Assembly (NCBI GenBank): GCA_964016885.1 | Contig: OZ024740.1 | Coordinates: 75,268,001-75,332,000, forward strand | Reading direction: 5' to 3' | Origin: Eledone cirrhosa | Lineage: Eukaryota | Length of the DNA: 64,000 bases | Shown here: positions 8,088 through 8,411 of the stretch, piece after piece | Layout: every line of letters begins with the position of its first letter | Numbering within the stretch: the first letter of the stretch is position 1 | Notes under the pieces: model-generated | Told to the model about the DNA's origin: nothing | Databases searched by the model: none | The model's input: the letters and a program-made list of their open reading frames with translations, nothing else | Position numbers and translations under genes: made by a program

Positions 8088-8411
8088 TTTCAGAGCACCA
8101 ATCCTAATACCTAATTTTTGTTGGACCGGCAATCGCTCTGTATAATCAGCTCCTGATTATTACTGGAATTCTATAAGAATCCAGCTTCTATAATTTTCGG
8201 CGGAAGCAGGGAGTGTGTGGCTCTGATGATCACCAAACAGCGTGAAACAGACTGTTAGCTTCTCTCTCTTCTTTCGCCGAAAAGTCACTACTTTAAAACC
8301 TATAGCGTGTGGTCTTCTAAATGTTTTTAATTAAACATACGGTATATTGCCAAATATACTATACATACATTCATGTATACATCGCTATTTCAGAGCACCA
8401 ATCCTAATACC
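8088..8411 (+). mobile_element. Non-coding 300-nt HHR module with 24-nt terminal redundancy
   Basis: TTTCAGAGCACCAATCCTAATACC at 8088 and 8388; related partial copy at 43450-43631 (-). Confidence 0.8.
8219..8260 (+). ncRNA. Type I hammerhead ribozyme motif
   Basis: GGCU CUGAUGA U CAC CAAACA GCG U GAAAC AGACU GUU^ AGCU; stem II has one mismatch. Confidence 0.7.

Follow-up and report, generated by a model that had tools for sequence, protein, structure and literature searches.

A short non-coding repeat at 8088-8411 of the window (the whole stretch of DNA analysed, 64,000 nt of the Eledone cirrhosa genome) raises the question of how such a sequence came to carry the same 24 nt at both of its ends and a hammerhead motif in its middle. 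An earlier note had proposed that it is the footprint of a reverse-transcribed circular RNA, with a monomer of exactly 300 nt that was copied slightly past one turn. The host genome is large (3.0 Gb) and rich in microsatellites, and it contains many relatives of the repeat, here called family A, as well as a young sister family, here called family B. Both end preferentially at two sites, S1 and S2. The features of the window are collected in Table 1.

Table 1. Features of the window that bear on the repeat and its candidate partner
Feature	Position	Strand	Basis
Family A copy; one arm, consisting of one unit (315 nt minus a private 15 nt) plus 24 nt	8088..8411	+	
Variable (truncated) 5' end; positions 1-24 of the unit	8088..8111	+	
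Predicted stem-loop AGAGC/GCTCT with AC-rich unpaired loop and inner hairpin; encloses S1	8092..8139	+	folds, alignment
Long stem, extension of hammerhead helix I; compensatory changes between subfamilies	8194..8283	+	
Type I hammerhead motif	8219..8260	+	
Site of private 15-nt deletion	8282..8284	+	
End site S2, AT-rich run ATGTATACAT in the window copy; read through there	8373..8382	+	
3' end at S1 (unit positions 22-24), the most frequent end of the family	8388..8411	+	
Remnant of (TA)n target, 3' junction	8412..8442	+	
Inverted microsatellite (CA)31-CG-(TG)31, perfect, adjoining the 5' end of the element	7962..8088	.	
Second family A copy; 15 nt retained	43448..43631	-	
[quoted passage not shown]

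The copy in the window

The 24-nt direct repeat is exact at its offset of 300, as had been stated, and other offsets from 295 to 305 give repeats of at most 4 nt each. It was also rightly taken for element sequence and not for a target-site duplication, since 22 of its 24 nt are present in the second, diverged copy (43448-43626, minus strand; 86% identity, gap included). Duplication of the target is further rejected by the 1279 exact genome matches of the terminal 22-mer. The monomer of exactly 300 nt did not hold: the unit of the family has 315 nt, and 15 nt are missing in the window copy alone. The junction of this deletion has one exact match across the genome, the window copy itself, so the figure of 300 is an accident and a subfamily with a 300-nt unit was rejected. 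Given the mapping of ends in the family (see below), the window copy is an S1-ended arm whose 5' end lies 24 nt beyond a full unit. It is decayed and 5'-truncated, and unremarkable alone.

No open reading frame of at least 150 aa occurs at the locus. The inverted microsatellite next to the 5' end possibly originated by repair fold-back. An isolated CTGATGA...GAAA motif is found at 8850-8900, 450 nt downstream. The second family A copy has its 3' end at S1 in (TA)n and its 5' end within the hammerhead, with a short fold-back at the palindromic stem III.

The hammerhead motif and its covariation

The core claimed for the middle of the unit is present and has type I topology, with stem I formed by 8219-8222 and 8257-8260 (GGCT/AGCT), CUGAUGA at 8223-8229, GAAA at 8244-8247 and GUU at 8254-8256; cleavage is predicted 3' of 8256. 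Stem II has three pairs and a U.U at its base, stem III is palindromic, and a long outer stem carries all of them. The window copy has an A.C mismatch in stem II (A8232/C8241) where its relatives are paired, and an Rfam scan of 8090-8411 returned no hammerhead at E<=10, only microsatellite-driven miRNA noise. As Rfam recognises none, the call of a ribozyme rests on the core motif and on covariation. In 96 distinct cores drawn from the fetched loci with a search pattern that made no demand for pairing, the three stem II pairs are kept in 89, 87 and 85 cores (shuffle maxima for the first two, 77 and 62), although kinship of the sequences inflates such counts. The swaps in stem II (CG/TA and GC/AT/TA) are compensatory, and over all hammerhead stems 75-91 of the 96 cores are paired in a core-anchored parse. 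The circularised monomer has a predicted fold of -74.5 kcal/mol (z = -4.7 against 100 shuffles).

Family A also carries GTAAGT and TTTCAG motifs, which may correspond to the spliceosomal intron that Penelope-like elements keep close to their hammerhead; the donor is absent from family B. The predicted junction of spliced copies has 0 exact matches in the genome.

Two fixed 3' ends and variable 5' ends

Family A has a non-coding unit of 39% GC and more than a thousand copies, inserted into (TA)n. A mid-unit 22-mer has 871 exact matches and reversed controls have 0; 43 matches are dimer-spaced. The 150 loci studied comprise the 30 best matches, 90 stretches around the first tail-pattern matches and the first 30 mid-pattern matches on contig 1, with duplicates removed. 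Among 208 terminal arms, from a sample whose first locus set favours S1, 103 end at S1 (unit positions 19-32, mostly 22-24), 74 at S2 (295-311) and 31 elsewhere; in the mid-pattern set, which lost the loci common to the earlier sets, 24 of 28 terminal arms end at one or the other. S1 ends run into (TA)n in 85 of 103 cases. The boundary of S2 is blurred because the flank is (TA)n, homologous TA. The two sites lie about 27-37 nt apart in family A and 26-34 nt apart in family B.

The 5' ends behave differently, occupying every 15-nt bin of the unit (4-22 per bin). Permutation among the copies, which the earlier note had expected of a circle, is therefore seen at one end only: 5' ends vary over the whole unit, and not all copies share the same linear ends, while 3' ends are fixed in 177 of the 208 terminal arms. 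Free circular permutation was rejected on these grounds. Nor does the unit appear as the tail of a longer coding element. Upstream of 73 free 5' ends no coding sequence is common to any two; two pairs share other sequence, one flank has the start of a Penelope-like ORF, and one 5' end (L084) abuts an endonuclease fragment. Read-through upstream always enters another unit.

In older subfamilies (75-88% identity) the unit is retained, together with its paired stems and its two end sites. The AT run at S2 is pure in most subfamilies, among them family B and older A subfamilies, and may pair with a (TA)n primer, judging by its sequence. According to the predicted fold, the AC-rich loop in which S1 lies would be unpaired and closed by sequence 3' of the insertion end, which suggests that initiation is internal. 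The stem-loop around it is conserved in the alignment of both families and is a candidate signal for protein binding and initiation. Family A arms are short, nearly all below two units and mostly below 480 nt; an arm of 1450 nt occurs in an older subfamily (L178).

Two further observations concern this family. A related insertion occurs at the same unit position (about 250-253) in two loci (L057:1758-2516 and L108:659-1136). In contigs from two runs of unrecorded kind, depth is very high over the unit and 7-9 in its flank, with no piece spanning the two.

Head-to-head arms use one site each

Both strands of family A are present at 71 of 131 loci. Family A yielded 65 head-to-head pairs with both 3' ends outward, of which 46 are classifiable: 41 combine S1 with S2, two have S1 at both ends and three S2 at both ends. 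The further 19 pairs have one end elsewhere. In the mid-pattern set, S1 is combined with S2 in one of three classifiable pairs. The arms of one locus are also related in sequence, with 977 of 1076 diagnostic calls in agreement (91%) against 72% for divergence-matched other loci, and rare alleles common to both arms make up 11% against 2% for the nearest other locus. The partner at the same locus outscores every other locus for just 16 of 70 pairs of arms and 18 of 89 pairs of tandem units, and the signal of a single template is noisier in the old family A than in family B.

Arrays of family B, probably from one template

The unit of family B, found beside one family A copy, has 310 nt and 35% GC and is 67% identical to that of family A. 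Exact matches to its ribozyme 26-mer number 4262, in divergent arrays with a spacing of 310, and 464 S2 ends were counted. Fifty stretches were analysed, 40 chosen from the first S2 ends and 10 being the first loci that the ribozyme core picked out. They contain 92 arms, with 10 single arms and 41 pairs; the median arm has 3.3 units and the longest more than 27. All 38 resolvable pairs combine S1 with S2 (9/9 of those picked by the core, which are unbiased, and 29/29 of those picked by S2). Three pairs were left out: one arm of L254, the single pair that had seemed to have S2 at both ends, runs off the fetched stretch, L266 lies at an edge and L290 has an N gap.

Variants at positions covered by at least three units were fixed in 59 cases, confined to a single unit in 72 and intermediate in 10. 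Ten fixed variants are private, in the sense that each was seen at one locus among the 50 sampled stretches, and are present in every unit of both arms, as in 11/11 and 13/13 units at L274 and 10/10 and 3/3 at L276. A new mutation that fills a whole array at once implies that the array was rebuilt from one monomer. The 28 loci compared carry 18 haplotypes. Most intermediate variants come from L266 and L254, from L270, where there are two distinct insertions, and from a single ambiguity of alignment; in L266 and L254 the variants come in blocks of units, from which it follows that arrays are also amplified after insertion. It is these arrays of relatives, and not the window copy itself, that lend support to the footprint of a circle proposed earlier.

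Recurrent fixed variants (loci L243-L292) cluster at unit positions 132-152 within the hammerhead, at N7 of the hammerhead numbering, at the base of stem II and in loop II. Several other recurrent variants are A>G. Selection on the RNA or editing of the template are possible causes of these patterns.

The arms cross the predicted cut site 433 times with 0 variants there. Within 7 nt of it lie 0 of 92 family B 5' ends (4.5 expected) and 8 of 221 in family A (10.5 expected); with no pile-up of 5' ends, a cleaved linear monomer that defines the ends was rejected. The longer arm may be either one (21 against 17 pairs), and in 34 of 38 pairs the arms have unlike 5' phases; fold-back of a single primed cDNA was rejected on both counts. 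Of the 41 junctions where arms meet, 19 are not clean, having inserts or nearby variants; among the 22 clean ones, 14 have microhomology of at least 2 nt, where 18% would be expected by chance. One (TA)n tract (L248/L322; near 36.04 Mb of G000:C1) holds both a double array of family B and, directly next to it, the end of a Penelope-like insertion with two arms.

A young Penelope-like element as candidate partner

The Penelope-like element of the window has hammerhead cores of its own at 25270 and 29412. Its RT region has 144 scored matches, all 100% identical and many with open frames of 1216-1217 aa, in tandem and head-to-head layouts. The 1217-aa ORF has a cysteine-rich linker followed by a C-terminal YIGET motif, an arrangement described for Neptune and Nematis (PMC8557442). 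A Pfam search of this ORF gave no family and a PDB search gave weak RT matches (E 0.05-0.15). It is probably Penelope-like, as indicated by its YVDD and YIGET motifs and by Atlas clusters at 0.96-0.98, some of which carry HTH_animal, RVT_1 or GIY-YIG.

Neighbours on opposite strands, taken as single insertions from their spacing, show one end per site in 15 of 16 pairs, and all lie in (TA)n. Their end sites, equivalent in the window to an AT-rich run at 25520-25531 and to 25569-25585, are about 40-65 nt apart, wider than in families A and B. Tandem neighbours share variants that are absent from ten other loci (four in L299/L300 and seven in L298/L301), which duplication after insertion would give as well. 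The A and B units have no homology to either of the two Penelope-like families compared, the young one and a Neptune-like one, so partnership with the young element is inferred from target, geometry and age only. As a partner, the Neptune-like family was rejected: it has a different hammerhead and lacks homology to the unit.

In the window, a decayed endonuclease fragment at 41179-41826 stands for that family; 150 relatives of it were scored, at 65-72%, with that other hammerhead some 700-800 nt downstream. The young family is further represented by two older terminal pieces of diverged sequence, at 33600-34000 and 42400-42720, which end in (TA)n, one at each of its end sites.

Other repeats in the window

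A further hammerhead repeat with a spacing of ~447 nt and the same U.U base occurs at 2308-4040 (minus-strand core at 3762), at 45856-45955 and at L189:170-375; its profile matches to the A/B alignment are weak (E 0.0003-0.025). At 44889-45711 there is a perfect 392-nt inverted repeat with a 39-nt spacer and a family B-like hammerhead core in each arm, and related cores are found in L151, L172 and L276. Long inverted repeats (94-99%) at 30152-30648, 43858-44564 and 51338-51678 are likely other two-armed insertions; hammerhead-like cores occur in each arm of the first, and a further core adjoins the third. An unrelated LINE-type RT fragment lies at 52414-54068 (Pfam RVT_1, E 4e-27). Minisatellites occupy 18496-19845 (25 nt) and 19911-20267 (20 nt, 100% uniform).

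A proposed mechanism and its alternatives

The account that we consider probable is that a non-coding hammerhead repeat of 310-320 nt is copied, as a circular RNA and in rolling-circle fashion, from both ends of a break in (TA)n by a Penelope-like RT/endonuclease. By analogy with published retrozymes, tandem arrays would be transcribed, and the hammerhead would excise monomers that are then ligated into circles. The enzyme, directed to (TA)n as the insertions are, would cut both strands of the target. One DNA end may then prime at the S1 loop and the other about 30-35 nt upstream at the AU run of S2, as the use of one site per arm suggests. Two polymerases would roll round the same circle, with strand displacement, for a random length, which fits the variants shared between arms and the scatter of 5' ends. 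The two cDNAs would finally be joined, often at short microhomologies, into the head-to-head arrays seen in the genome. In single-armed copies such as 8088-8411, one arm may have been kept, having passed its start by 24 nt or having been shortened later.

For the window copy, passage slightly beyond one turn, as first proposed, fits the position of the 5' end. It is also possible, if the less likely course, that a longer array once stood here and that recombination between its units left the 24 nt as a remainder, a reading that is compatible with the circle. The old family A arms are mostly below 480 nt against the median of 3.3 units in young family B, as collapse would have it, but arms of older subfamilies are sometimes still long, and the 1450 nt of L178 indicate that collapse is not inevitable.

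Long, uncut linear tandem transcripts might instead have been copied, with two RNAs primed independently and the uniformity of the arrays produced by gene conversion, unequal crossing-over or assembly polishing. Uncut RNA was indeed the main template for an anole Penelope-like element in vitro (PMC11167929), and the block-shared variants of L266 and L254 attest to local amplification. Such an origin is nevertheless improbable, as variants of one locus fill both inverted arms while the 72 single-unit variants escaped homogenisation, and mosaics are rare. Linear copying that truncates at the 5' end cannot add units, and independent RNAs leave unexplained why each arm keeps to one site.

Yet more doubtful is a linear, hammerhead-cut monomer on which the polymerase jumped repeatedly from the 5' end back to the 3' end. 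Jumps between molecules should yield mosaics, and at the point of the jump there are neither variants in 433 crossings nor a pile-up of 5' ends, even though repeated jumping would also yield uniform units from one molecule and in two loci (L271 and L277) a 1-nt insertion is fixed at 3 nt from where the cut is predicted. That the unit should be no more than a terminal repeat, left by an autonomous Penelope-like element with a truncated 5' end, or the 24 nt a target-site duplication, is very improbable and already largely refuted, for although tail, inversions, (TA)n targeting and hammerhead are Penelope-like traits (PMC8557442) and the 5' end of L084 abuts an endonuclease fragment (1/73), read-through enters another unit every time, no coding flank is common to two 5' ends, the 24 nt are element sequence with many exact matches, and A and B, at 67% identity, evolved as a unit.

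Copying of a circle from two sites has difficulties of its own. Five of the 46 classifiable family A pairs break the rule of one arm per site, and for the anole element in vitro, start sites were alike on the two strands and hammerhead cleavage was not needed (PMC11167929). The 19 pairs with an end elsewhere, the one of three in the mid-pattern set, the junctions that are not clean, the block-shared variants of L266 and L254, the shortness of family A arms and the low counts of same-locus best matches in that family also speak against it, as do the failure of Rfam to recognise the hammerhead, the lack of homology to the two Penelope-like families compared and the wider spacing of the young element's end sites.

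Relation to known elements

In its sequence, the element has the marks of a metazoan non-LTR retrozyme and appears to behave as a non-autonomous Penelope-like element. Its size and GC content fall within the retrozyme range (about 150-450 nt, low GC; A 315 nt/39%, B 310 nt/35%). Tandem copies that each carry a hammerhead, as in retrozymes, are found at the level of the family, the window copy having one. Plant LTR retrozymes, with type III hammerheads in LTRs, PBS/PPT and a 4-bp TSD, are excluded by the type I topology, and the 24-nt repeat is a variable overlap and not an LTR.

In L1 twin priming, a 5' inversion results from internal priming by the other target strand on the RNA already in use, and the two segments barely overlap on that RNA. 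The arms described here differ in running through many overlapping units from two fixed sites.

Metazoan non-LTR retrozymes (PMC7229834; bioRxiv 10.64898/2026.07.22.740005) are alike in having a non-coding unit of ~300 nt, GC below 45%, a type I hammerhead, copies from monomers to multimers, strong predicted self-pairing and co-occurring Penelope-like elements; one axolotl family also has U.U at the base of stem II, and circles have been proposed as templates for reverse transcription. They differ in that head-to-tail arrays are described, whereas the available text does not describe head-to-head arrays, two end sites or variants common to both arms. Their circles were shown experimentally; here the circle is a proposal drawn from genomic sequence. 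The retrozymes of Xenopus are homologous to Penelope-like terminal repeats (bioRxiv 10.64898/2026.07.22.740005), unlike the present units when set against two families, and an origin of retrozymes from Penelope has been proposed in the same work.

Endonuclease-positive Penelope-like elements (PMC8557442, PMC11167929, PMC4209133) likewise have partial tandems, a 5' inverted copy, (TA)n targets and a hammerhead. Their tail of 30-40 nt, often at one end only (PMC8557442), is comparable with the spacing of S1 and S2. In the anole element, initiation is internal, at two sites in an AC-rich stem-loop, the tail is the sequence between the two starts, and both target strands are cut and extended in vitro (PMC11167929). 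The start sites of that element are reported to be non-homologous to the target (PMC11167929), whereas the upstream site S2 may pair with it, to judge by its sequence. Penelope-like elements differ in having an ORF; the retrozyme unit has none, and hence neither RT nor GIY-YIG. Beyond what these papers report in their available text, the present data connect the start sites with the two arms of a single insertion and with a single template haplotype. A circular template for copying of more than one unit had been proposed earlier (PMC4209133, PMC7229834). The non-autonomous elements of Chlamys, e.g. MRC1 (PMC8557442), are alike in being non-coding, Penelope-dependent and multicopy head-to-tail, but resemble the 3' ends of autonomous families and mostly lack a hammerhead; no such resemblance to autonomous families was found here.

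The class of element is thus already known, while the genomic evidence for its mechanism looks new: in the literature searched, which included few subscription journals, the available text does not report a rule of one arm per site or variants fixed across both arms.

Implications

The tandems, inversions and one-sided tail of Penelope elements, and the circles of retrozymes as intermediates of transposition, are presented in the available literature as proposals that had not been shown. Near-identical young insertions record the template, with one haplotype for both arms and each arm starting from its own fixed site. The hypothesis of a circle thereby gains specific predictions, and with them a candidate enzyme whose ORFs are intact and a minimal substrate, 310 nt long. 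We lean, by a narrow measure, towards a general form of it, in which rolling-circle reverse transcription, primed from both ends of a (TA)n break at two staggered sites of one circular RNA, is how Penelope-like elements as well as the retrozymes that parasitise them integrate. Tail, pseudo-LTRs, tandems and inversions would then have a single explanation, and the present genome would hold an active pair of an enzyme and a 310-nt circle. A reverse transcriptase that copies a small circle into multimers at the two ends of a break would also be of interest for the design of genome-writing tools.
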